A DNA stretch of 64,000 bases from Candidatus Aldehydirespiratoraceae bacterium. GTDB taxonomy: Bacteria > Actinomycetota > Acidimicrobiia > Acidimicrobiales > Aldehydirespiratoraceae. Every line of letters begins with the position of its first letter. Positions within the stretch are counted from its first letter, which is position 1. Positions 51,954-64,000 of this stretch are shown one piece after another. The notes beneath the pieces are model-generated. The model was not told the DNA's origin. It saw only the letters and a program-made list of their open reading frames with translations, and made no database searches. Where the stretch lies: assembly GCA_965198315.1 (NCBI GenBank), contig OZ240616.1:509586-573585 (forward strand). Direction: 5' to 3'. The position numbers and the translations under genes were made by a program.

Positions 51954-54900
51954 ATGAGTTCAGCAGTAACGGGAAAGGGAGTGCCGGTGAAGGTGCCGAA
52001 CCGATCGATGCGGTTGAGTGTCCTTCGCCTTGTGCGTATGGCGGTGGCCTTTGTCGTCGTCGCGGGCAGTCTCGGTTTGGCTACGGTCACAGCGACCGCG
52101 CAGGACGGCGGTAGTTCGTGCCCATCTGAAGGCGCCGATAACTATTCGGATGTCGTTGAAGGCAGCACGCACGCCGCCAACATCGCATGCCTACGCGAGT
52201 TGGGTATCTCCGATGCTGGTGACACCTACCGTCCTGGCGAAGACATGACTCGTTCGGAAATGGCAGCGTTCATGGCCAATGCTTACGCGGCGCTGACAGG
52301 CGAGGAAGCGCCGATCGCCGAGCACATGTTCGCCGACATCGCCGATGACCCCAACGCTGATGACATTGCGCGCATCAGTCCTAATGGGCTCAAGATCACG
52401 ACCGGCACGACAGATACGACCTACTCGCCCGACGATCCTGTGATTCGTGCGCACATGGCTCTGTTCTTGACACGCCTCTATGAGAGGGTGACTGGTAGCG
52501 AAGCTCCGGCTGCAGACACTGAGTTCACCGACATTGCTGGGCGCAATGACGAGCAGCAGGCCGCTATTGGCCAGCTCTTTGGTCTGGGAGTTACGACGGG
52601 TACGACAGATACGACGTACTCGCCCACAGACAACGTGACACGCGAGCAGATGGCTTCGTTTGTTGCACGTATGTATCGGGAGATTGATGCGCTAGCTGAG
52701 GCTCCGGGAGCTCCGACCGGTGTGGCAGCTGCGGTCAGCGGCGACGATGGCGATGCCCTCGACGTGTCTTGGACAGCCCCTGAAGTCAGCGGCACCAGCG
52801 ACGTCACGGGCTATGTCGTGCAGTGGAAGTCGGGCGACGACGACTACTCCGAAGACAACCAGAGTTCGGTGGAAGACGCTTCATCCAACTTCCCTGGCCT
52901 CACCAAGGGCGCCACATACACATTCCGTGTCGCGGCGGTGAGCGATGACGGCCAGAGCGACTGGTCCGACGAGGCCTCGGCGACGATACCTAAGGCTCCA
53001 GGAGCTCCGACCGGTGTGGCAGCTGCGGTCAGCGGCGACGCTGGCGATGCCCTCGACGTGTCTTGGACAGCCCCTGAAGACAGCGGCACCAGCGACGTCA
53101 CCGGCTATGTCGTGCAGTGGAAGTCGGGAGACGACGACTACTCCGAAGACAACCAGAGCGACGCAACCGACACTTCGGCCACAGTCGATGGCCTCACCCA
53201 GGGCGACACCTACACATTCCGTGTCGCGGCGGTGAGCGCTGACGGCCAGAGCGACTGGTCCGACGAGGCCTCCGCTTTGATACCTGAGGCTTCGGGAGTT
53301 CCGACCGGTGTTGAAGTTGCGGTCAGCGGCGACGCTGGCGATGCGCTTGACGTGTCTTGGACAGCCCCTGAAGACAGCGGCACCAGCGACGTCACCGGCT
53401 ATGTCGTGCAGTGGAAGTCGGGAGACGACGACTACTCCGAAGACAACCAGAGCGACGCAACCGACACTTCGGCCACAGTCGATGGCCTCACCCAGGGCGA
53501 CACCTACACATTCCGTGTTGCCGCGGTGAGCGATGACGGCCAGAGCGACTGGTCCGACGAGGCCTCCGGCAACCCAGCGGTTGCTCCGGGTCTTGTAGGC
53601 GAGCTCACTTCGACGCCTGGTAACAGCACGCTGACCTTGAGCTGGACCGCTCCTGCCGATGACGGTGGCAGCGCGATCACCGGCTATCTGGTTTCGTGGC
53701 GCACCGGACGTCAAGCGTCGGCAGACACCGCCGACGTTGCTGGCGACGCAACGGGCTACACCATCACCGGTTTGAGGAACACAGCGAACTACTCGGTGTG
53801 GGTGGCGGCGATCAACGCTGCAGGCACTGGCGAGAACGCTTCAGTTCCTGCTGGCACCGACAATGTCTCTATCAGTCCAGTACCAACCGCGGCGACCGCT
53901 CCACAGAACGTGACAGTCACACCAGCTCCAGGTGGCGGTGTATTGGTCGTTTCTTGGACAGCGCCCGCTGACGATGGTGGCACGGTTCTGTTGGCCGCTG
54001 GTGCCTACACGGTCCAGCATCGTTGCGGCGACATAAGTGCGTGGAGCGATCCAGGAACGGCAGTTGATGTCGAATCGAACAAGCAGGTTCAGAGTACTAC
54101 GCTCACCGGCTTGACGAACGGCGATGCTTGCGAAGTTCGAGTTCGAGCGAACAGCTACAACGAAACGGATACCCCCGCCGACGGCCAGGACGGCGATGAG
54201 CCGACGCTGAACAGTCCTTGGGCTGAAGGCTCCGGTACTCCAGTAACGCTTCCGAACGCGCCGACCGGTGTGGAAGTCACTACTGCACATCAGTCCTTGC
54301 AGATCACATGGGACGCTCCCGAAGAGGACGGCGGCAGTGACGTCACTGGCTACAAGGTGATCTGGAACGCCGGCATCCCGGCTAACGCGACTGTTCCTGC
54401 CGAGCCACGGATGTACACGATCACTGGTCTGAACAATCAGTATCAGTACGCGGTAACGATCAACACGATCACCGCTGTTGGTGAAAGCACCGAAGCGTCG
54501 ACCGCTGAGAATGGCGATCCTGCTCCGGTACCTGCTGCGCCGACCAATGTCCAAGCGGCGCCACCAGCAGTAGTTGCTGGAGAGGACCATAGCGGTATCT
54601 CCTTGGTGGTCACTTGGAATGCGCCACCCTCCAACGGCACAGGCGCTGTAGTCAGTTACAACGTGCAAACCCGGACTTCCGTTGTGCTAGCCGATGACGG
54701 TTCGGTCACAACACCCGCTGGAGACTGGTCGGCCGCCGTAGTAGTAGCGGCGCCGATGACGAAGACCACTATCGACAGCTTGACGAACGGCACCTCCTAC
54801 GACGTACGGGTCCAGGCCACAAACTTGGACGCGGACGTTGCCACGAGCGGCCCCGGTCCATACGGCGTCGGTTCGGGAACTCCGGCCACACTGCCTGGTG

Positions 54901-55829
54901 AAGTCGCTGCTGCGACAACAGTTGTTGTGCCTGGTTACACCTCGTTGGATGTGCTCTGGGCTCCACCAGCCGACAACGGCAGCGACATCACCCACTACCT
55001 CGTGAGGTATGCAAGCAACGTGACCGGCAATGAGCCGTTCAGCAGCGACAGGCGAGTCCCTGCCCCGCTGACCCGGGTCAATCTCACCGGACTCGCCGTC
55101 GGTATTCCATACGTGATCCAGATCCAGGCCGTCAACGGCATTGGAACCGGAATCAACCCGACTGCTGACTTCGCCGGCTCGACCGGTCTGTACCCGAATG
55201 CTCCGGCATCGGTGACAGCCGTGCCGAAGGTGGACGGCGACGGAACGATGCTGACCGTGACATGGTCGAAGGTCACCCAGACCAACGGCACCGGCCCGGT
55301 CACTAGCTACGTCGTGGAAGTCCTTAATACGACCAACCCGGCCCCGTGGGCAGGGACAACGTTCCAAGTCGCAGACCTGACTGACCTGAAGGGCGACGTC
55401 ACCGTCAGCGACGGGGACACCTACCTGGTGAGGGTCAGGGCTGTAGCAGGGACCAACGGTAGCTTCGGCTACCTGGCTGGCACGGTCACGGCCGCAGGCG
55501 TACCAGACGCTGCTGAATATCCAGCAACGGTGACGGCCGTTGTCGACGAGGCAACCAGTTCCACAGTCAACGTGAGTTGGACAAGTGTCCCCGAAGGCAC
55601 CGATAGCGATATCACGGGCTACGTAGTGACTTGGTCCAATACCACCAACCCAGTGACTGGTAGCCGTGGCAGCGCCGCTGTCTCGGGTGCTGGAACCGGT
55701 GAGTACTCCATCACCGGCTTGAACCCCGGCACCTACAGAGTTCAGGTACGATCGGTCAACCATGTCGGTAGCAGCGACGTTACAGCTGGCGTCGCTGCCG
55801 CCGCTCCGGTGGTACCGCCACCCGAATAA
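51954..55829 (+). CDS. secreted surface protein: signal peptide, three SLH-like repeats, about ten fibronectin type III modules
   Basis: 1291 aa. Signal MAVAFVVVAGSLGLATVTATAQ. SLH-like repeats FADIADDPNADDIARI..TTGT..YSPDDPVIRAHMALFLTRLY. FN3 repeats with recurring W..P..DGGS.ITGY.V.W and Y.F.V.A.N..G. Confidence 0.85.
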   Translation: MSSAVTGKGVPVKVPNRSMRLSVLRLVRMAVAFVVVAGSLGLATVTATAQDGGSSCPSEGADNYSDVVEGSTHAANIACLRELGISDAGDTYRPGEDMTRSEMAAFMANAYAALTGEEAPIAEHMFADIADDPNADDIARISPNGLKITTGTTDTTYSPDDPVIRAHMALFLTRLYERVTGSEAPAADTEFTDIAGRNDEQQAAIGQLFGLGVTTGTTDTTYSPTDNVTREQMASFVARMYREIDALAEAPGAPTGVAAAVSGDDGDALDVSWTAPEVSGTSDVTGYVVQWKSGDDDYSEDNQSSVEDASSNFPGLTKGATYTFRVAAVSDDGQSDWSDEASATIPKAPGAPTGVAAAVSGDAGDALDVSWTAPEDSGTSDVTGYVVQWKSGDDDYSEDNQSDATDTSATVDGLTQGDTYTFRVAAVSADGQSDWSDEASALIPEASGVPTGVEVAVSGDAGDALDVSWTAPEDSGTSDVTGYVVQWKSGDDDYSEDNQSDATDTSATVDGLTQGDTYTFRVAAVSDDGQSDWSDEASGNPAVAPGLVGELTSTPGNSTLTLSWTAPADDGGSAITGYLVSWRTGRQASADTADVAGDATGYTITGLRNTANYSVWVAAINAAGTGENASVPAGTDNVSISPVPTAATAPQNVTVTPAPGGGVLVVSWTAPADDGGTVLLAAGAYTVQHRCGDISAWSDPGTAVDVESNKQVQSTTLTGLTNGDACEVRVRANSYNETDTPADGQDGDEPTLNSPWAEGSGTPVTLPNAPTGVEVTTAHQSLQITWDAPEEDGGSDVTGYKVIWNAGIPANATVPAEPRMYTITGLNNQYQYAVTINTITAVGESTEASTAENGDPAPVPAAPTNVQAAPPAVVAGEDHSGISLVVTWNAPPSNGTGAVVSYNVQTRTSVVLADDGSVTTPAGDWSAAVVVAAPMTKTTIDSLTNGTSYDVRVQATNLDADVATSGPGPYGVGSGTPATLPGEVAAATTVVVPGYTSLDVLWAPPADNGSDITHYLVRYASNVTGNEPFSSDRRVPAPLTRVNLTGLAVGIPYVIQIQAVNGIGTGINPTADFAGSTGLYPNAPASVTAVPKVDGDGTMLTVTWSKVTQTNGTGPVTSYVVEVLNTTNPAPWAGTTFQVADLTDLKGDVTVSDGDTYLVRVRAVAGTNGSFGYLAGTVTAAGVPDAAEYPATVTAVVDEATSSTVNVSWTSVPEGTDSDITGYVVTWSNTTNPVTGSRGSAAVSGAGTGEYSITGLNPGTYRVQVRSVNHVGSSDVTAGVAAAAPVVPPPE

Positions 55830-55924
55830 GAAATACCAAGATGTAGTCGGCTGGCTCCTGGGCTCTCCGCCGGGCCCAGAGAGCCGCCGGCTACTTAGCT
55901 GCAATTGCAACTAAGCATTAGTTC

Positions 55925-55952
55925 AGAGCCCGAGGTCTTGGCCTCGGGCTCT
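55925..55952 (+). terminator. perfect 11-bp stem hairpin (AGAGCCCGAGG-tcttgg-CCTCGGGCTCT) downstream of surface-protein gene 1
   Basis: Read directly, about 95 nt after the stop. A second imperfect palindrome lies at about 55895-55918. There is no U-tract. Confidence 0.5.
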
Positions 55953-56133
55953 AACTATTGTCCCCCCAAGTTCGATCCCACCCCCGAAACACCCCGACGA
56001 CCCGCCCCTGACCCAGCAACAGAGGTTCAACTTCCACCACGGTCCGATCGTCGACTCGATCACAAGGATGCCCCCGCTCCTGACGCCCCTGCGTCCGACG
56101 CGACCATCCGCAACAATAGAAGGAGCAAATCAG

Positions 56134-56832
56134 ATGGTTGAATTCAATGACTACGACATGGACGTTATGAAGGAAGTGGTCGACAGTCTTCCGGAAAGAT
56201 TCAATACCTATGACGTCTCTAAGCATCGTCGGATGCTCGACGAGCACAGGCGCGTGGTCGGGCATAGGAACTACCATGCGTTCGTCGGGAAGTTGCTCAA
56301 GAGCCCTACGAGGGGTTTGGGCTTGGAACAGACAACGCCCGATGGCCATTCACCTGCTTGCTGGAGGAACAGGCCAGCAGTGATAGAGATGCCGGACCCC
56401 GCTCCCCGGCTGCTTCAGGAACTCAGCGGTCACGGTATGGAAGCACTGTCAGGTGATGAAGCAGGGGTGCGGCACCACAGTGTCGGTGCCGTTCCAGAGG
56501 GCGCGAAGACCCGAGTCGAAGTAAACAGGTACGAGCGTGACAGCGGAGCAAGGCAGGCGTGCATCCAGCACTACGGAGCAATCTGCCAAGTGTGCGATTT
56601 GGATTTCTCGAAGCGCTACGGCGCAATCGGTGACGGGTTCATCAATGTCCACCACACAACACCGTTGTCACAGATCACAGATCACGACAACCACACGACC
56701 AATCCCTTGACGGATCTCGTGCCGGTGTGTCCCAACTGTCACGCCATGCTCCACAGAGGCGGGCTAATACCGTTCACCGTCGAGGAGCTTCAGCACCAGA
56801 TGACCCAAGCCGCAATGGGGCAACAGGACTGA
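56134..56832 (+). CDS. McrA-like HNH endonuclease with uncharacterised N-terminal domain
   Basis: 232 aa from ATG 56134 (AGGAG 8 nt upstream). C-terminal HNH: CQVCDLDFSKRYGAIGDGFINVHHTTPLSQI...NPLTDLVPVCPNCHAMLH. Confidence 0.8.
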   Translation: MVEFNDYDMDVMKEVVDSLPERFNTYDVSKHRRMLDEHRRVVGHRNYHAFVGKLLKSPTRGLGLEQTTPDGHSPACWRNRPAVIEMPDPAPRLLQELSGHGMEALSGDEAGVRHHSVGAVPEGAKTRVEVNRYERDSGARQACIQHYGAICQVCDLDFSKRYGAIGDGFINVHHTTPLSQITDHDNHTTNPLTDLVPVCPNCHAMLHRGGLIPFTVEELQHQMTQAAMGQQD

Positions 56833-57002
56833 ATGAAGCCATCCTGACATGCCCGTGCGGGGGTCTGGACCCGTCCATTGGTGGACGTTCGGCCCAACCG
56901 GTTCGCAGTAGTCAAGCGATTCGCGCGTAAGAGAACGATCTATCGGACCCGAACCGTCACTGGAACGTCCGCAACCAGTGCCTTCGGTTTACGGGCGAGC
57001 GT

Positions 57003-57338
57003 CTAGGCGGACGCTGCAGTTCGCTCATCCGACCTCAACGCCCAGATGCTCAGGCTTCGCTGGGACAAAGCGTCAAGATCGGTGATAGCGCCCAGATGGG
57101 AAGCGAGCCTGTCAGTGTCGCTGTCGAAATAGTTGCCATGGGTCTTTTTGACAGTCTCGATACTGGACGATCCGAGCAAGACAATGTCCATGTGCGGAAC
57201 GTCCACGTACTTTTCCTCTTCTGAGGTGTAAGCAGCCACGGCTTCGGTGGAATCCGTGAACTCCTGCAGATCAACTTGCCTGCCCTCAGCGCGGTCAAAC
57301 CGAATCAAGAAATAGACAATCTTCCCGGTTTCGTTCAT
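57003..57338 (-). CDS. hypothetical protein, translationally coupled to the RelA/SpoT-domain gene (candidate antitoxin)
   Basis: 111 aa. Its ATG overlaps the upstream stop (ATGA at 57335-57338). It is acidic and has no recognised motif. Confidence 0.5.
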   Translation of the reverse strand: MNETGKIVYFLIRFDRAEGRQVDLQEFTDSTEAVAAYTSEEEKYVDVPHMDIVLLGSSSIETVKKTHGNYFDSDTDRLASHLGAITDLDALSQRSLSIWALRSDERTAASA

Positions 57339-58051
57339 GGCCCTCTCAAGTCCTGTTGCGCCAGTCTAGTGAGCCTATCCAGGTCGTCAAGGAAGTTCTC
57401 GTCCAACGGCACCCCGGATTCTGTGCAAGCGGTCCCCTCGGCAAGCTTGCAGAGCCAGTCTAGGACCGGCTGAGGGCCAACACCGCTCTTGAGATCATGC
57501 CCAAGCATCACTCCGAGTTCTTCGACGAACACGGCCCACTCGTGCTGACCCGGTGTCCGCAACTGAACTTCAACTCTGCGGCCACGATAAACGGTCCGCA
57601 GGTGCACAGCACGGTAACCCGACGCGCGAGGACGTTCGACATAGTCGATGATCCTGTCGTCCTTACCGTTTCTGGTACGGCTGTTTCTTGAGAACCTGGT
57701 CTTGACTGCCTCTACTTCGTCAGCAGACTGCAGCACCACCCGGCACCCGCCGATGTCATTCATCTGGGAGAGCTTCATGTTGGGATACCGCAACAGCTTG
57801 TCCACGATTGTCGGCACCCGTTTCAACCGCTGTGTAACCTCACCTTCCAAGCGCAACGTGCGAAGGCAGGAACGAAGCCCGTTGTTTGCCGTCACGAGAG
57901 CCATCTTGTGATCATCGCGATACGCACGTACGACCTTCAGCGCTTCGTCGCGTTGTTGTCCAGCTAGAAGTTGTGAGTGGTCCAATTGGATAGCACGGAT
58001 CACGTCCGCAGCTTTGTTCGCTTGATTGTTGCTCACAGACCGCGACCGCAT
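57335..58051 (-). CDS. RelA/SpoT-domain small alarmone-synthetase-like protein (toxSAS candidate)
   Basis: 238 aa with synthetase-domain motifs RLKRVPTIVDKL, MNDIGGCRVV, GYRAVHL, VEVQLRTPGQHEWA. There is no hydrolase, TGS or ACT domain. Confidence 0.85.
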   Translation of the reverse strand: MRSRSVSNNQANKAADVIRAIQLDHSQLLAGQQRDEALKVVRAYRDDHKMALVTANNGLRSCLRTLRLEGEVTQRLKRVPTIVDKLLRYPNMKLSQMNDIGGCRVVLQSADEVEAVKTRFSRNSRTRNGKDDRIIDYVERPRASGYRAVHLRTVYRGRRVEVQLRTPGQHEWAVFVEELGVMLGHDLKSGVGPQPVLDWLCKLAEGTACTESGVPLDENFLDDLDRLTRLAQQDLRGP

Positions 58052-58199
58052 TCAACTCGGAAGGCTAACCACCTGATCCATCTGCGGCTCCGTCTTCTTG
58101 GCGGCCTGGCAGTTCGCACCAGCCTGAACGGCGCATCCCTGGCCGGCAGAGGCGTTCCGTCAACCCTCGTCGCCATTAGCCGAACGGCCTAGTCACGAA

Positions 58200-58301
58200 C
58201 TGTGTCCGGCGCATTATGTAGTCTGTTCAGTGCGGACAACCGATAGGTTTCGATTAGTGGTTGCGAAGAGCCAAGCAATCCAACCCAGAGTGGAGAAGGC
58301 A
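58200..58301 (+). promoter_or_regulatory. conserved 5' leader of SLH/FN3 surface-protein gene (copy 2)
   Basis: Counterpart of 51861-51953. It ends at the ATG 58302. Confidence 0.6.
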
Positions 58302-61300
58302 ATGATCCCAGCAGGCGCAGCAAAGAAGGCCCCAACCGGATTCCCGAACCAATCGATCCAGGCACGCCTGGTCCGTCTCACGCGCATGGCGGTCGCATTT
58401 CTCGTCGTCGCGGGCAGCCTCGGTTTGGCAACGGTCACGGCCACAGCGCAGTCCAACAACAGCTCATGCCCCTCCACCGACGCCGACGCCTACGCCGACC
58501 TGACCGACGAGAACAACTACGCCTACGACGACAGCCGCTGCCTAAAAGAACTCGGCATACCCGCACCGGGCGACAACTACCGTCCCGACGACGACATGAC
58601 CCGATCGGAGATGGCCCGGTTCATGGCCCGGACCTACGCACTCGTCACCGGAAACGAAGCCCCCGTCGTCGCCACCAACTTCACCGACGTCAGTGCCGAT
58701 GATCCCAACGCCGACGACATAGCCCGAATCTTCGGGCTGGGGATCACCACCGGCACCACACCCACCACCTACTCACCCGACAGCCCCGTGATCCGCGGGC
58801 ACATGGCCCTGTTCCTGGCGCGTCTCTATAAGAAGGCAACCGGCAGCGACGCCCCGAGAGCAAACACTCCATTCATCGACATCTCGGCTCGCAGTTCCGA
58901 ACAAGAGACGGCCATCGGCCAGATCTACCGGCTCGGCGTAACCACCGGCACCACAACCACAACCTATTCGCCCGGCGATGATGTAACACGCAGACAGATG
59001 GCCTCGTTCGTCGCACGAATGTACAGCGTCCTTGACGCCATCACCTCAGGAACCGCAGCCGACGCCCCCACCGACCTAGAAGTATCGGTCAGCGGCACCG
59101 ACGGTACTGCCCTCGAAGTCAACTGGACCGCCCCCGACGACACCGGTTCCAGCGACATCGTCAACTACCTCATCCAGTGGAAGACCGACGACACCAGCTA
59201 CACCCGAACAAACCAGCACGACACGACCGCCACATCAGCCACCTTCGACGACCTCACCGCGGGCGAAACCTACACCTTCCGTGTAGCCGCGCGGACAGCT
59301 GTAGGCCTCGGCGACTGGTCCGATGAGGCCTCCGGCAACCCAGCTACCGTTCCGGACGCTCCGACCGGTGTTGAAGTTGCGATCAGCGGCGACGTTGGAG
59401 ATGCGCTTGACGTGTCTTGGACAGCCCCTGAAGACAGCGGCTCTCACGATGTGACTGGTTACGTCGTGCAGTGGAAGTCGGGCGATGACGACTTCTCCGC
59501 TGACAACGAGAGCTCGGTAGACGGCACTTCGGCCACGATCGATGGCCTCACCAAGGGCACGGTGTACACCTTCCGTGTCGCCGCGGTGAACGTTGCCGGC
59601 CTCGGCGACTGGTCCGCCGATGCCTCCGGCAACCCAGCTACCGCTCCGGACGCTCCGACCGGTGTTGAAGTTGCGATCAGCGGCGACGTTGGAGATGCGC
59701 TTGACGTGTCTTGGACAGCCCCTGAAGACAGCGGCTCTCACGATGTGACTGGTTACGTCGTGCAGTGGAAGTCGGGCGATGACGACTTCTCCGCTGACAA
59801 CGAGAGCTCGGTGGACGGCACTTCGGCCACGATCGATGGCCTCACCAAGGGCACGGTGTACACCTTCCGTGTCGCCGCGGTGAACGTTGCCGGCCAAGGC
59901 GACTGGTCCGATGAAGCCTCCGGCAACCCAGCTACCGCCCCAGGCCTAGTCAGCGACCTTAGATCGACACCCCGCAACGCCTTGCTGGCCCTGAGATGGA
60001 CCGCTCCCGCCGACGACGGAGGCAGCGAAATCACCGGCTACGTGATCAGCTGGAAAACCGGACGCCAATCAACAAGAACCGCTGAGATCAACAACGGAGA
60101 CGCCACCTCCTACACCATCACCGGGCTGAGGAACTCCACGGTGTACTCGGTATGGGTACAGGCCACCAACGCTGCGGGCACCGGTGACAGAGCCAGCGCC
60201 CCCACCGGTACCAACAACTTCTCGGTCACCCCGGCACCAAACGCGCCAACCGCGCCACAAGACCTCACGGTCACCCCGGGCAACCGGACCCTGACCCTCA
60301 ACTGGAAGGAACCGGCCGACGACGGAGGGACCACCTTCACCGGTTACACCATCGAGAACCGCTGCGGCACTGCCAGCCGATTCAGTACAGCCAGCGGCTC
60401 GCCACAGCCACACAATACGGCCAGCGCGGTTCAGACCATCACGATCCACGGCTTGGCCAACGGCACCCACTGTGACGTGCGGGTAGCGGCCAACAGCTAC
60501 TACGACGCCGACCGCAACAACTTTCGGAGCTTCAACGAACCGATACTGACCAGCCCCTGGGCACAAGGTTTCGGCACCCCCGCAACTTTGCCGTTCGCAC
60601 CAACAAACGTAATGGTCACCACTGCTCACGAATCCCTGCAAGCCTCCTGGGCACCCCCCACCAACGACGGAGGCAGCGACATCACCGGATACAAGCTGAC
60701 CTGGTCCGCTGGTATCCCAGCCTCAGTCATCATCGGCAACCGCACGACCTACACGATCACCGGCTTGGACAACCGCTTCGCCTACACCGTAAGCGTCAAG
60801 ACGATCACCGATGTGGGCGAAAGCACAGCGGCGTTCGCCAGCGGCGACACGCAACCCCGCGCCGTGCCCGCAACGCCCCGGAACGTTCAAGTCAACACAG
60901 CACCGCTGCTGATCAACGGCAATACCAACGTCAACGCCGGCTCCAGCCTGGTAGTCACCTGGGATGCACCGCAGCCCAACGGCACCAACCCGGTCGACGG
61001 CTATGTCGTACAGCGGCGCGACTCCCTCATCTCCTCCACAACTCCGGGCGTCAATCCGATACCAGCAGGCCAATGGTTCAGCACAGGCGTAGGAACCGTG
61101 GATGTCATCAACAGGACCGTGACCATCGCAGGTCTCCAGACAGGCAGGTCCTACGACATCCGAGTCCAAGCGACCAACGACCACGACAGCAACACCGGCA
61201 CGACCTCAATAGGTGGCCCATGGGCCATGGGATCGGGGACTCCGGCAACCGCGCCCGCCGCAGTCACGCCGACACTCGAACCCGGGCACACATCGATAAT

Positions 61301-62153
61301 CGCGTCATGGATCCCACCCGCCGACAACGGCAGCGACATCACCCACTACCTCATCAGGTATGCCGAGAACCTGACAGGCAATGAGCCCTACAGCACCGAC
61401 ATCCGCGTCAACGCACCCGCCACACGCGCCCGGATCACGGGACTCAAAGTTGGTGTGCCCTATGTCGTGCAGGTCCAAGCCGTCAACGCCATCGGCACCG
61501 GACCGAACCCGGCGGGCGAGATCCAAACCACCACAGGCCTCTTCCCAGACGCTCCAACTTCAGTCAGAGCAGTACCCACACCGAACGGCAACGGGAGCAC
61601 CCTGACCGTGACCTGGAACAGAGTCACCCGGACCAACGGCGCAGGCCCCGTGAGCAGCTACATCGTGGAAACCCTCGACGTGACGAACCCCGGCAACACC
61701 TGGATCCCGACACTCGGCATCGACGGCAATACCACAACGGCAGTCGTCAACGTCATCATCGGCAGAACCTATCTGGTGAGGGTGAAGGCGGTCGCACTCA
61801 ACACCGGCATCTCGGGCTACATCGACGCTCCGGTCAAGGCAGCGGGTTCCCCACCCACACCAGCGCTCCTCGCCGCCACCCTCGCCACCGACGCCAGAAC
61901 AATCAAGGTGGTCTGGACCGCCGTCTCCCCAGGCACACCGAGCGACATCATCAGCTACACCGTCAGCTGGTTCTCTACCACAGACCCCGTGCACGGTGCC
62001 CGAGGCGCCGTGCTCATCACCAGCAACACCCGCGGGACCTACTCCATACACGGCCTTCCCTCCGGCTCCTACACCGTGCAAGTCGTGGCAACCAACCACA
62101 TCGGCAACAGCCCCCCTCGCACTGCCAACATATTCATCCCAGCCCGTTCCTAA
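58302..62153 (+). CDS. secreted surface protein paralog: signal peptide, three SLH-like repeats, about ten FN3 modules
   Basis: 1283 aa from ATG 58302 (the ORF-track start 58230 reads through the leader). It has the same architecture and an identical signal core MAVAFLVVAGSLGLATVTATAQ. Confidence 0.85.
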   Translation: MIPAGAAKKAPTGFPNQSIQARLVRLTRMAVAFLVVAGSLGLATVTATAQSNNSSCPSTDADAYADLTDENNYAYDDSRCLKELGIPAPGDNYRPDDDMTRSEMARFMARTYALVTGNEAPVVATNFTDVSADDPNADDIARIFGLGITTGTTPTTYSPDSPVIRGHMALFLARLYKKATGSDAPRANTPFIDISARSSEQETAIGQIYRLGVTTGTTTTTYSPGDDVTRRQMASFVARMYSVLDAITSGTAADAPTDLEVSVSGTDGTALEVNWTAPDDTGSSDIVNYLIQWKTDDTSYTRTNQHDTTATSATFDDLTAGETYTFRVAARTAVGLGDWSDEASGNPATVPDAPTGVEVAISGDVGDALDVSWTAPEDSGSHDVTGYVVQWKSGDDDFSADNESSVDGTSATIDGLTKGTVYTFRVAAVNVAGLGDWSADASGNPATAPDAPTGVEVAISGDVGDALDVSWTAPEDSGSHDVTGYVVQWKSGDDDFSADNESSVDGTSATIDGLTKGTVYTFRVAAVNVAGQGDWSDEASGNPATAPGLVSDLRSTPRNALLALRWTAPADDGGSEITGYVISWKTGRQSTRTAEINNGDATSYTITGLRNSTVYSVWVQATNAAGTGDRASAPTGTNNFSVTPAPNAPTAPQDLTVTPGNRTLTLNWKEPADDGGTTFTGYTIENRCGTASRFSTASGSPQPHNTASAVQTITIHGLANGTHCDVRVAANSYYDADRNNFRSFNEPILTSPWAQGFGTPATLPFAPTNVMVTTAHESLQASWAPPTNDGGSDITGYKLTWSAGIPASVIIGNRTTYTITGLDNRFAYTVSVKTITDVGESTAAFASGDTQPRAVPATPRNVQVNTAPLLINGNTNVNAGSSLVVTWDAPQPNGTNPVDGYVVQRRDSLISSTTPGVNPIPAGQWFSTGVGTVDVINRTVTIAGLQTGRSYDIRVQATNDHDSNTGTTSIGGPWAMGSGTPATAPAAVTPTLEPGHTSIIASWIPPADNGSDITHYLIRYAENLTGNEPYSTDIRVNAPATRARITGLKVGVPYVVQVQAVNAIGTGPNPAGEIQTTTGLFPDAPTSVRAVPTPNGNGSTLTVTWNRVTRTNGAGPVSSYIVETLDVTNPGNTWIPTLGIDGNTTTAVVNVIIGRTYLVRVKAVALNTGISGYIDAPVKAAGSPPTPALLAATLATDARTIKVVWTAVSPGTPSDIISYTVSWFSTTDPVHGARGAVLITSNTRGTYSIHGLPSGSYTVQVVATNHIGNSPPRTANIFIPARS

Positions 62154-62682: not shown

Positions 62683-63082
62683 CTAGTCCCTAAGGGTGAA
62701 GTACCCGTCGTGCATGGTGATGTGAAACGAAGCGAGGATGTCCATACCTAGCAGCACATCAAAATTCGGGTGGGTCGGCCGGGAGAAGCTGTACGTAGAG
62801 CTCCTTCAACGCGGAACAGGTCCCTGAGGTGCTGCTCCCCACGCTGATCCTGAGTCTGTACACGGGTGATTCAACGGGCTCCCCGCCGAGAGAGACGATA
62901 TTTCTCCTGCCCACGGAGGTCGCACCGAGTGCGGTGGCAACCTTGGCCGAGACCATCGTAGCCTGAGCACCTGTATCAACCAGAGCTGTGAACGGATCGC
63001 TCTTCGGGCCGTCGGGCGGTACAGACAGCGTCGCTTCAACCATGATTCGGTCGTCGACGATCTCGACGTTGAACGTGGGCAC
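62683..63082 (-). pseudogene. retropepsin-like (clan AA) aspartic protease, interrupted by a +1 frameshift at a T4 run
   Basis: The ORF 62759..63082 has the active site LVDTGAQATMVS and ends ...PPEF*. The next frame continues DVLLGMDILASFHITMHDGYFTLRD* (62683-62760), the normal C-terminus of this family. The shift lies in aaaa 62761-62764. Confidence 0.7.
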
Positions 63083-63551: not shown

Positions 63552-63845
63552 TCAGCCTGCTCTGCGTCCTGCTTCCTCCCAACTGGAACACTGGGGCGAC
63601 GACATCCCCCTCCTGTGCGGCGTCAACTTCAATCCCGCTTGATGGACGAGAGACAGCGCGTTGAGGTCGTCTTTGGTAGCGACCTGGTCCCAAGAGAATG
63701 GAGGTAGGGAGTCCATGAGTTTGTGGGCCACATCCTCTCCGAGCGCTTCGATCAAACTGTTGAGGAGCTCGAAACGCTCCCCCTCGCCTGCCGCCATGGC
63801 AAGTTCCCTTCGTTGTAGTCGCTTGTGATGGGAAGTTGTCGCCAT
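63552..63845 (-). CDS. hypothetical protein (helical, ...WDQVATKDDLNAL motif); start and C-terminus uncertain
   Basis: Only the middle part (ERFELLNSLIEALGEDVAHKLMDSLPP..ATKDDLNAL) looks protein-like. The tail may be frameshifted. Confidence 0.25.
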   Translation of the reverse strand: MATTSHHKRLQRRELAMAAGEGERFELLNSLIEALGEDVAHKLMDSLPPFSWDQVATKDDLNALSLVHQAGLKLTPHRRGMSSPQCSSWEEAGRRAG

Positions 63846-64000
63846 TGCGCAGCGAGTACCCCGTACCGTATCACCCGGAATGTGGTTGGCTGCTGTTGGT
63901 CTGATTCGATTGTCTCTGGATGGCTTTGATGATACGGTGATGCCCGTAAGCCACTTCCCCCCTGACATCACGAATTGGATGGAGACCAGAGTGGCCCTGA

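Follow-up and report, generated by a model that had tools for sequence, protein, structure and literature searches.

A putative unfused CapRel-type toxin–antitoxin cassette in a variable islet of an Acidimicrobiia genome

Within a 64,000-nucleotide stretch of contig OZ240616.1 from a Candidatus Aldehydirespiratoraceae bacterium (the whole of which we call the window), two overlapping genes on the minus strand encode a protein of 238 residues and, directly downstream, a partner of 111 residues, each from an ATG start codon (Table 1). The original prediction, in which no strand was given, had proposed these open reading frames (ORFs) as one of the toxic small alarmone synthetases (toxSAS) and its antitoxin, and we found both in place together with the described 4-nucleotide overlap, where the TGA stop codon of the first gene and the ATG start codon of the second share the coding-strand letters ATGA (tcat on the plus strand). 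For convenience, the first product is called here the toxin and the second the antitoxin or partner, and the two genes the cassette. The toxin is basic (pI 9.53) and the partner acidic (pI 4.61). That these are real genes and not chance ORFs follows from the homologs recovered for each (629 for the toxin and 1166 for the partner) and from their ratios of nonsynonymous to synonymous substitution (dN/dS), which, when calculated versus relatives diverged enough to measure, came to 0.25-0.39 in the case of the toxin and to 0.33-0.34 in that of the antitoxin; both genes are under purifying selection.

As regards the toxin, its sole Pfam domain is RelA_SpoT (residues 74-174, E 4.3e-15), in keeping with the earlier claim that hydrolase and regulatory domains are lacking from the 238-residue protein, and a comparison with NCBIfam gave only sub-threshold matches, to long RelA/SpoT homolog (RSH) and YjbM models. 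The four motifs for which it was originally picked out (QRLKRVPTIVDKL, DIGGCRVV, SGYRAVHL, and VEVQLRTPGQHEWA) are all present in its translation. Moreover, the toxin matches positions 6-219 of the PADLOC model PDC-S33 (E 3e-52), which has 349 positions and describes one protein, and the partner matches positions 262-342 of the same model (E 3.6e-9). As CapRelSJ46, the CapRel of Salmonella phage SJ46, matches PDC-S33 end to end (positions 4-342, E 7e-87), we take this to be a fused-CapRel model, of which the window pair is the split form; nothing was found in the literature on the name “PDC-S33”. Against this model, the toxin scores 176 bits versus 82 for the PhRel of Phrann (E 1e-23). Using phmmer, the top sequence match of the toxin in the protein data bank (PDB) was CapRelSJ46 (PDB ID: 7ZTB/9ERV; E 1.3e-15), followed by RelQ (E 1.4e-7), while the best matches in 50,697 phage records were the phage SJ46 CapRel, with 31% identity across 81% of the query, and also Phrann gp29.

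A model of the toxin was calculated with AlphaFold2 (AF2) from an alignment of 95 homologs, giving a predicted local distance difference test (pLDDT) score of 95. In a Foldseek search with this model, the best hits were again the CapRelSJ46 structures 9ERV and 7ZTB, with a template modeling (TM) score of 0.75-0.77 over about 250 columns as compared with 0.54-0.60 for RelQ, and since the superposition spans that many columns, the N- and C-terminal helices are included in it. Here, R75, R104, and Y146 of the toxin align to R79, R116, and Y155 of CapRelSJ46, the first two of which hold the adenine of ATP, with the third being the G-loop tyrosine. Among the 95 homologs, R75, D99, R104, Y146, and Q163 are invariant, and E161 is kept in at least 90%. 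The toxin is therefore a single toxSYNTH domain in which the ATP-site arginines, the G-loop tyrosine, and the catalytic acidic residues are intact, as in the CapRel subfamily. From 151 columns of the SYNTH core in 25 sequences, a neighbor-joining (NJ) tree was built in which the window clade and CapRelSJ46 were joined with a bootstrap of 100/100, the PhRel phage proteins formed a separate group (100/100), and RelQ-like small alarmone synthetase (SAS) sequences, an archaeal provirus SAS, and a long RelA all fell outside both groups. The phylogenetic placement suggested in the original prediction thus sets the toxin with CapRel, apart from PhRel, other SAS, and long RSH, among few reference subfamilies, the housekeeping ones being RelQ/RelP-like SAS and a long RelA; the grouping with housekeeping actinobacterial SAS that the original prediction had named as counter-evidence was not seen with these references, none of them an actinobacterial housekeeping SAS.

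With regard to the partner, its acidity and its lack of a Pfam or NCBIfam family match agree with what was first reported, though the notion that it might belong to an undescribed antitoxin family is not supported: its family has already been described and is only missing from those two collections. In fact, the partner shares 37% identity over 62 residues with Phrann gp30 (ATphRel; E 3e-6) and aligns in BLASTP to residues 338-358 of CapRelSJ46 (E 4e-4), and a profile of 27 antitoxin sequences aligns to CapRelSJ46 residues 302-369 in hhalign (E 1.2e-4). It is thus homologous both to gp30 and to the C-terminal pseudo-zinc-finger domain (pZFD) of CapRel, and lies directly downstream of the toxin. 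These relationships had been recognized before, as PhRel and CapRel have a common homologous antitoxin (PMC7229694) and ATphRel and ATcapRel are homologs of the C-terminal part of fused CapRel (PMC9712102). In both the BLASTP and hhalign alignments, the T-H-x-x-Y-F motif of the antitoxin falls on A351-Y352-P-N-Y355-F356 of CapRelSJ46, which holds the YXXY motif that mutagenesis has found to be needed for CapRelSJ46 autoinhibition (PMC9712102). Across 27 diverse antitoxins, gp30 included, there is no variation at T66, H67, Y70, or F71, and in a set of 122 sequences, T66, H67, N69, and Y70 are invariant with F71 kept in at least 90%.

In the AF2 model of the antitoxin, residues 8-72 have a pLDDT >90 and are arranged as beta-beta-alpha-beta-alpha (strands 8-15 and 20-27, helix 30-43, strand 50-57, and helix 60-66), followed at the motif by a short turn of helix (68-70). 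This predicted topology matches the published pZFD description (PMC9712102). A comparison of the antitoxin with PDB sequences returned a single match, eL18, whose E value of 0.46 marks it as a chance hit. A library-wide search with the antitoxin profile gave 1343 cluster representatives. In P0263, a natural fusion of 331 residues, the N-terminus is 42% identical to the toxin and the C-terminus 42% identical to the partner, with the motif reading THANYF; this own-toxin fusion lies inside the bicistronic clade. Elsewhere, in P0327 (227 residues) and P0328 (207 residues), the antitoxin domain is N-terminal and the C-terminal regions are unrelated.

How closely the two genes are tied to one another is seen from a locus scan of one genome per GTDB species, which found 210 relatives, of which the best 80 loci supply the locus counts given here. 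The nearest relative, at 92% identity, is a Ca. Aldehydirespiratoraceae metagenome-assembled genome (MAG) of the Acidimicrobiia. Other relatives are Ca. Aldehydirespirator, Poriferisodalis, and Spongiisocius, as well as Mycobacterium, Microbacterium, Nocardioides, Micrococcus, a Bifidobacterium breve MAG, Dormibacterota, and Chloroflexota. With a hidden Markov model seeded only with window-clade partners and gp30, 79 of the 80 loci were found to have an antitoxin homolog directly downstream and in the same orientation as the toxin (Actinomycetota, Dormibacterota, and Chloroflexota; seed-only E 1e-15 to 1e-23). At the 80th, the contig stops at the toxin stop codon, and hence the linkage holds in 79 of 79 testable genomes. 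The antitoxin homolog commonly overlaps the toxin stop codon by 1-8 nucleotides, with overlaps of the -4, -1, or -8 type in most related loci. A failure of the partner to co-occur in other genomes had been named in the original prediction as evidence that would speak against it, and no such failure was seen. The proposal of an SAS homolog of the toxSAS type with a cognate small partner in an overlapping operon of toxin–antitoxin (TA) character is supported. No third gene is conserved beside the pair in the 80 loci, where the commonest flanking family, tyrosine integrase, occurs in nine.

Disruptions of the cassette fall unevenly. The toxin is split or N-terminally truncated in 15 of the 80 loci, and partial antitoxins number 0 of 79. 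Were disruptions to strike each gene according to its length (about 74:26), the probability that none of 10-15 falls in the antitoxin would be about 0.01-0.05, with assembly errors a possible contributor to the count. Likewise, two close relatives have kept the antitoxin but not an intact toxin, which is broken in L005 and replaced in L007. This asymmetry is what one would predict for a toxic gene with a protective partner, though it is only suggestive. At the replaced locus, a chimeric ORF (7660-8004 of L007) stands where the toxin gene would be and leaves the antitoxin orphaned; its N-terminus (IEALGEDVAHKLMDSLPPFSW...) belongs to the family of a 139-residue ORF at the end of the window (Table 1), and its last residues come from the toxin 3' end. 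As a separate matter, some Acidimicrobiales genomes have at least two CapRel-type cassettes close to one another, or a second antitoxin copy adjoining the first, with two such loci (L013 and L020) about 9 kb apart on one contig, CBDEFI010000001.1, and others at L015 and L032. Such clustering suggests local duplication of the module. The window itself holds no second SAS or antitoxin copy.

From the observed gene structure, family placement, antitoxin homology, conservation, co-occurrence, and purifying selection, we consider it likely that the cassette is a bicistronic and unfused TA module of the CapRel type, whose toxin would act on the 3'-CCA end of tRNA and whose antitoxin would block the ATP-donor site. 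When free, the basic toxSYNTH enzyme would transfer pyrophosphate from ATP onto tRNA at its 3'-CCA end, and this pyrophosphorylation would block aminoacylation and with it translation. The translationally coupled downstream gene would deliver the acidic pZFD antitoxin, which would bind the toxin in trans such that its T-H-x-x-Y-F turn (H67/Y70) is inserted between R75 and R104, so blocking the pocket for adenine in the ATP-donor site. Translational coupling is indicated by the ATGA overlap together with the GAGAGGG run that precedes the antitoxin start codon. In addition, a weak promoter-like site in the toxin 3' end (one found versus 0.3 expected in shuffles) could provide an extra supply of antitoxin; it was the only signal returned by promoter, terminator, and repeat scans of the islet. 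Neither tRNA genes nor Rfam matches were found within the window.

Published work on related systems provides a framework for this proposal. CapRelSJ46, FaRel2, and PhRel2 are known to transfer the pyrophosphate of ATP onto the tRNA 3'-CCA end (bioRxiv 10.1101/2021.04.30.441581; PMC9712102), inhibition by Mycobacterium AB308 CapRel and Phrann PhRel is specific for translation (bioRxiv 10.1101/2021.04.30.441581; PMC9712102), and PhRel binds tRNA with sub-micromolar affinity (PMC11782079). The pZFD antitoxins neutralize tRNA-targeting toxSAS at the ATP-donor site, with two aromatic residues stacked on two arginines (PMC11782079). Moreover, AB308 CapRel:ATcapRel and Phrann PhRel:ATphRel are validated TA pairs (PMC7229694), and the fused form of CapRel predominates “except in Actinobacteria” (PMC9712102). 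Phage defense has been demonstrated for the Phrann pair and for fused CapRel (PMC7229694, PMC9712102), and by analogy, the likely role of the cassette would be abortive-infection phage defense and/or stabilization of the islet in which it resides.

Several points nevertheless weigh against this interpretation. Foremost, we infer the toxicity, the tRNA substrate, the neutralization, and the role in defense from the family, and because no sequence signature parts tRNA-targeting from nucleotide-synthesizing toxSAS (bioRxiv 10.1101/2021.04.30.441581), the substrate in particular is assigned by clade membership. The tree that defines this clade was made by NJ only, with few references, and lacks the FaRel, FaRel2, PhRel2, and actinobacterial housekeeping SAS subfamilies. 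When M. tuberculosis AB308 CapRel was examined in E. coli, its toxicity was only weak (PMC7229694). In the antitoxin, a histidine replaces the first tyrosine of the canonical YXXY motif, as it also does in Phrann gp30, so that the motif is conserved as an invariant H67-x-x-Y70 facing Y352-x-x-Y355 and its strict Tyr-Tyr form is absent; presumably, the histidine is functionally equivalent to that first tyrosine. The hhalign probability for the antitoxin profile and CapRelSJ46 is just 54%. Similarly, the Foldseek search of the PDB with the antitoxin, a check put forward at the outset, placed CapRel chains at ranks 1-3 of 350,542, though with values that are not significant on their own (E 0.4-0.8, TM 0.30-0.35) and thus only consistent with the proposed kinship.

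Among the other explanations, the one that retains the most weight, though we judge it clearly the lesser prospect, is that of selfish addiction or of decay, in which the cassette, as a module of the first kind or a remnant of the second, would do no more than stabilize its islet and would have no part in phage defense. Bipartite CapRel systems are not known to have a phage trigger, 9 of the 80 loci have an integrase close by, 15 of the 80 have split or truncated toxins, and in two sister contigs the toxin is deleted or broken and the antitoxin persists. In the window, however, both genes are intact, have all catalytic residues, and are under purifying selection. Sister genomes, moreover, have DarTG, RES, and type-IV-restriction-like HNH genes beside the cassette in the manner of a defense island, and protection against phages is established for the homologous pair of Phrann as well as for fused CapRel (PMC7229694, PMC9712102).

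A second explanation, which seems improbable to us, keeps the same TA layout but has the toxin make (pp)pApp or (p)ppGpp as its toxic nucleotide and deplete ATP as FaRel and Tas1 do, with no modification of tRNA. The SYNTH fold and the G-loop tyrosine are common to all RSH synthetases and so would fit either activity, as would the want of a distinguishing signature in the tRNA-using toxSAS (bioRxiv 10.1101/2021.04.30.441581). Yet the toxin clusters with the tRNA-targeting CapRelSJ46 (100/100), is basic (pI 9.53), and adjoins no SAH/HD hydrolase gene of the sort found in FaRel operons. The partner, for its part, is a pZFD antitoxin with an intact motif, and in published work such antitoxins are coupled to translation-targeting toxSAS, whereas producers of (pp)pApp are neutralized at the acceptor site by Tis1-like proteins (PMC11782079). 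Both chemistries had been offered in the original prediction, and it is tRNA CCA pyrophosphorylation that is favored over (pp)pApp synthesis by the CapRel placement together with the pZFD pairing.

Lastly, it is most improbable that the partner instead serves a non-toxic SAS as activator or sensor, as in PANGU type I (GRel + NAP), or regulates a (p)ppGpp synthetase of the housekeeping kind, for although a toxSAS with an activating partner has been shown in a 2026 preprint (bioRxiv 10.64898/2026.04.06.716658), where GRel bears a C-terminal DNA-mimic domain and is accompanied by a DNA-clamping NAP, the window partner is acidic where a nucleoid protein would be basic, has two antitoxins of experimentally shown neutralizing activity as homologs and keeps their neutralization motif, and stands beside a single-domain SAS of 238 residues that has no extra C-terminal DNA-mimic domain, falls outside the RelQ/RelP-like SAS references, and, unlike a housekeeping gene, has no conserved genomic position.

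Returning to the favored reading of an unfused CapRel-type module, we compared the cassette with previously characterized systems. AB308 CapRel:ATcapRel (PMC7229694) is likewise actinobacterial and bicistronic, with the toxin first and a small downstream antitoxin of the shared CapRel/PhRel family, a likeness drawn from its published description and not from sequence identity. The mycobacterial relatives that we recovered (L053, L067, and L076), at 39-43% identity, are laid out as the window pair is. In contrast to AB308, the window host belongs to the Acidimicrobiia, and its antitoxin, at 111 residues, includes a clade tail of about 37 residues as compared with a total of about 85 in those mycobacterial relatives. 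CapRelSJ46 (PDB ID: 7ZTB/9ERV; PMC9712102) is the nearest solved structure by both sequence and fold, matches the same PDC-S33 model, retains the equivalent R79, R116, and Y155 residues, and has a C-terminal pZFD motif that aligns to the window antitoxin. Whereas CapRelSJ46 is a single polypeptide of 373 residues with neutralization in cis and sensing of a phage capsid, the window encodes two polypeptides that would work in trans, identity is about 27-31%, and the motif reads HxxY and not YxxY. Phrann gp29/gp30 (PhRel:ATphRel) is also bicistronic, toxin then antitoxin, and gp30 has the same T-H-x-x-Y-F, but PhRel belongs to a separate toxin clade, has a longer C-terminal region (292 residues), and is prophage-encoded, with gp30 being just 71 residues.

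Coprobacillus FaRel2:ATfaRel2 (PMC11782079) is the best structural precedent for the proposed mechanism, as it is a bipartite tRNA-targeting toxSAS with a pZFD-like antitoxin that neutralizes in trans and whose YXXY 3-10 turn blocks the ATP-donor site. FaRel2 nonetheless represents another toxSAS subfamily, with an antitoxin that is circularly permuted and has no detectable sequence similarity to that of the window, and it appears neither among the phmmer matches of the toxin nor among the 50 Foldseek matches listed. As for RelQ and RelP (PDB ID: 5DEC and 6EWZ), they share the SYNTH fold and the catalytic motifs, but match the toxin less well (E 1e-7, TM 0.54-0.60), are without the CapRel-type N- and C-terminal helices, and are non-toxic (p)ppGpp synthetases with no linked antitoxin. 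With an antitoxin linked in 79 of 79 loci, variable flanks, and RelQ/RelP a distant second, the toxin does not conform to a housekeeping SAS of the RelQ/RelP-like kind.

Unfused actinobacterial CapRel:ATcapRel pairs having already been published and experimentally validated, the window pair adds little that is new. What it does is to extend this validated family to uncultured Acidimicrobiia, including relatives of sponge-associated lineages, to show that toxin and antitoxin are essentially inseparable (79 of 79 testable genomes), and to reveal that the neutralization motif has an invariant T-H-x-x-Y-F form in the actinobacterial branch. For annotation, more than 1100 “hypothetical” proteins of 80-110 residues could be named as antitoxins of the ATcapRel/ATphRel type. 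Two features are mildly unusual. One is the invariant histidine in place of the first motif tyrosine, which is shared with gp30 and hence not new. The other is the C-terminal tail of the antitoxin, 37 weakly constrained residues found in this clade only: residues 75-111 have an AF2 pLDDT <50 and are not in the usual antitoxins of 82-100 residues, and their dN/dS is 0.35-0.86 as compared with 0.16-0.31 in the core (residues 1-74). It is conceivable, though doubtful, that the tail is a trans-acting sensor or an oligomerization element, through which a phage protein could free the toxin of a bipartite CapRel. If so, the Acidimicrobiia cassette would be an entry point into how unfused CapRel and PhRel systems get triggered.

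Table 1. Positions of the cassette, its sites, and neighboring features in the window
Feature	Position	Strand	Details
CapRel-type toxSAS toxin gene (putative)	57335-58051	-	238 residues; one toxSYNTH domain plus N- and C-terminal helices
toxSYNTH catalytic core, residues 74-174	57530-57832	-	R75, R104, Y146, and EVQLRT inside
Core sites	R75 57827-57829; R104 57740-57742; G-loop Y146 57614-57616; EVQLRT 57554-57571	-	
Antitoxin gene (putative)	57003-57338	-	111 residues, acidic; pseudo-zinc-finger domain of ATcapRel/ATphRel type plus clade-specific tail
Antitoxin motif T66-H67-G-N-Y70-F71	57126-57143	-	Codons ACC CAT GGC AAC TAT TTC
Antitoxin C-terminal extension, residues 75-111	57006-57116	-	Close clade of the window only
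ATGA stop/start overlap	57335-57338	-	Shine-Dalgarno-like GAGAGGG run ahead of the antitoxin start
Promoter-like TTGACG-16-TAGACT	57363-57390	-	Within the 3' end of the toxin gene, shortly upstream of where the antitoxin starts; weak, from a consensus match only
Variable islet between SLH/fn3 surface-protein paralogs	55830-58229		HNH gene and TA cassette
Surface-protein paralog, first	51954-55829	+	SLH and fibronectin-III
HNH gene	56068-56832	+	254 residues
Surface-protein paralog, second	58230-62153	+	SLH and fibronectin-III
Retropepsin-like gene	62759-63082	-	107 residues
ORF related to the N-terminus of the L007 chimeric ORF	63552-63971	-	139 residues

The setting of the cassette is also as first described, with paralogous surface-protein genes on either side and an HNH gene next to it. 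Both surface proteins are S-layer-like, with about 1300 residues, SLH domains, and 9-10 fibronectin-III repeats, and are encoded in tandem; each gene has near-identical internal repeats, and the 5' regions of the two are alike. Between them, the GC content shows a mild dip to 0.56-0.59 in the islet versus 0.62-0.64 in the flanks. In the HNH protein, the HNH domain is C-terminal (Pfam E 4.8e-6), PADLOC relates the protein weakly to type IV methyl-directed restriction enzymes (mREase_IV-like, E 2.4e-7), and the N-terminal ~140 residues match no family. The gene is convergent with the antitoxin gene and accompanies the cassette in the closest relatives only. Considered as a third component of the module, it was rejected, having homologs in just the four closest loci; it is a neighbor there, and not a member.

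In sister contigs (L004-L008), the same slot variously holds HEPN_RES_NTD1-RES, DarT-Macro (DarTG), IS110/rve/DDE transposases, and a Peptidase_M78-like gene; in the window, its only occupants are the HNH gene and the cassette. Hence the cassette is a mobile and autonomous two-gene unit in a hypervariable islet that is a TA/defense hotspot, and the slot between the surface-protein paralogs could be flagged as such in this lineage. When the window is compared with L009, L004, and L006, identity is mosaic: from 56200 to 57600, which takes in the HNH gene, the antitoxin gene, and the last third of the toxin gene, it is 98-100% at the nucleotide level, and in the 5' two-thirds of the toxin gene (57600-58051) it is 77-94%, with similarity ending some 50 bp upstream of where the toxin starts. 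There seems to be a recombination breakpoint inside the toxin gene, and L005 breaks at about the same place. Further downstream in the window, the retropepsin-like protein (Asp_protease_2, E 6.8e-7) is encoded by a gene that recurs near the module in relatives (L005-L007), always with an ORF of 82 residues before it, and the two may form another small two-gene islet unit.

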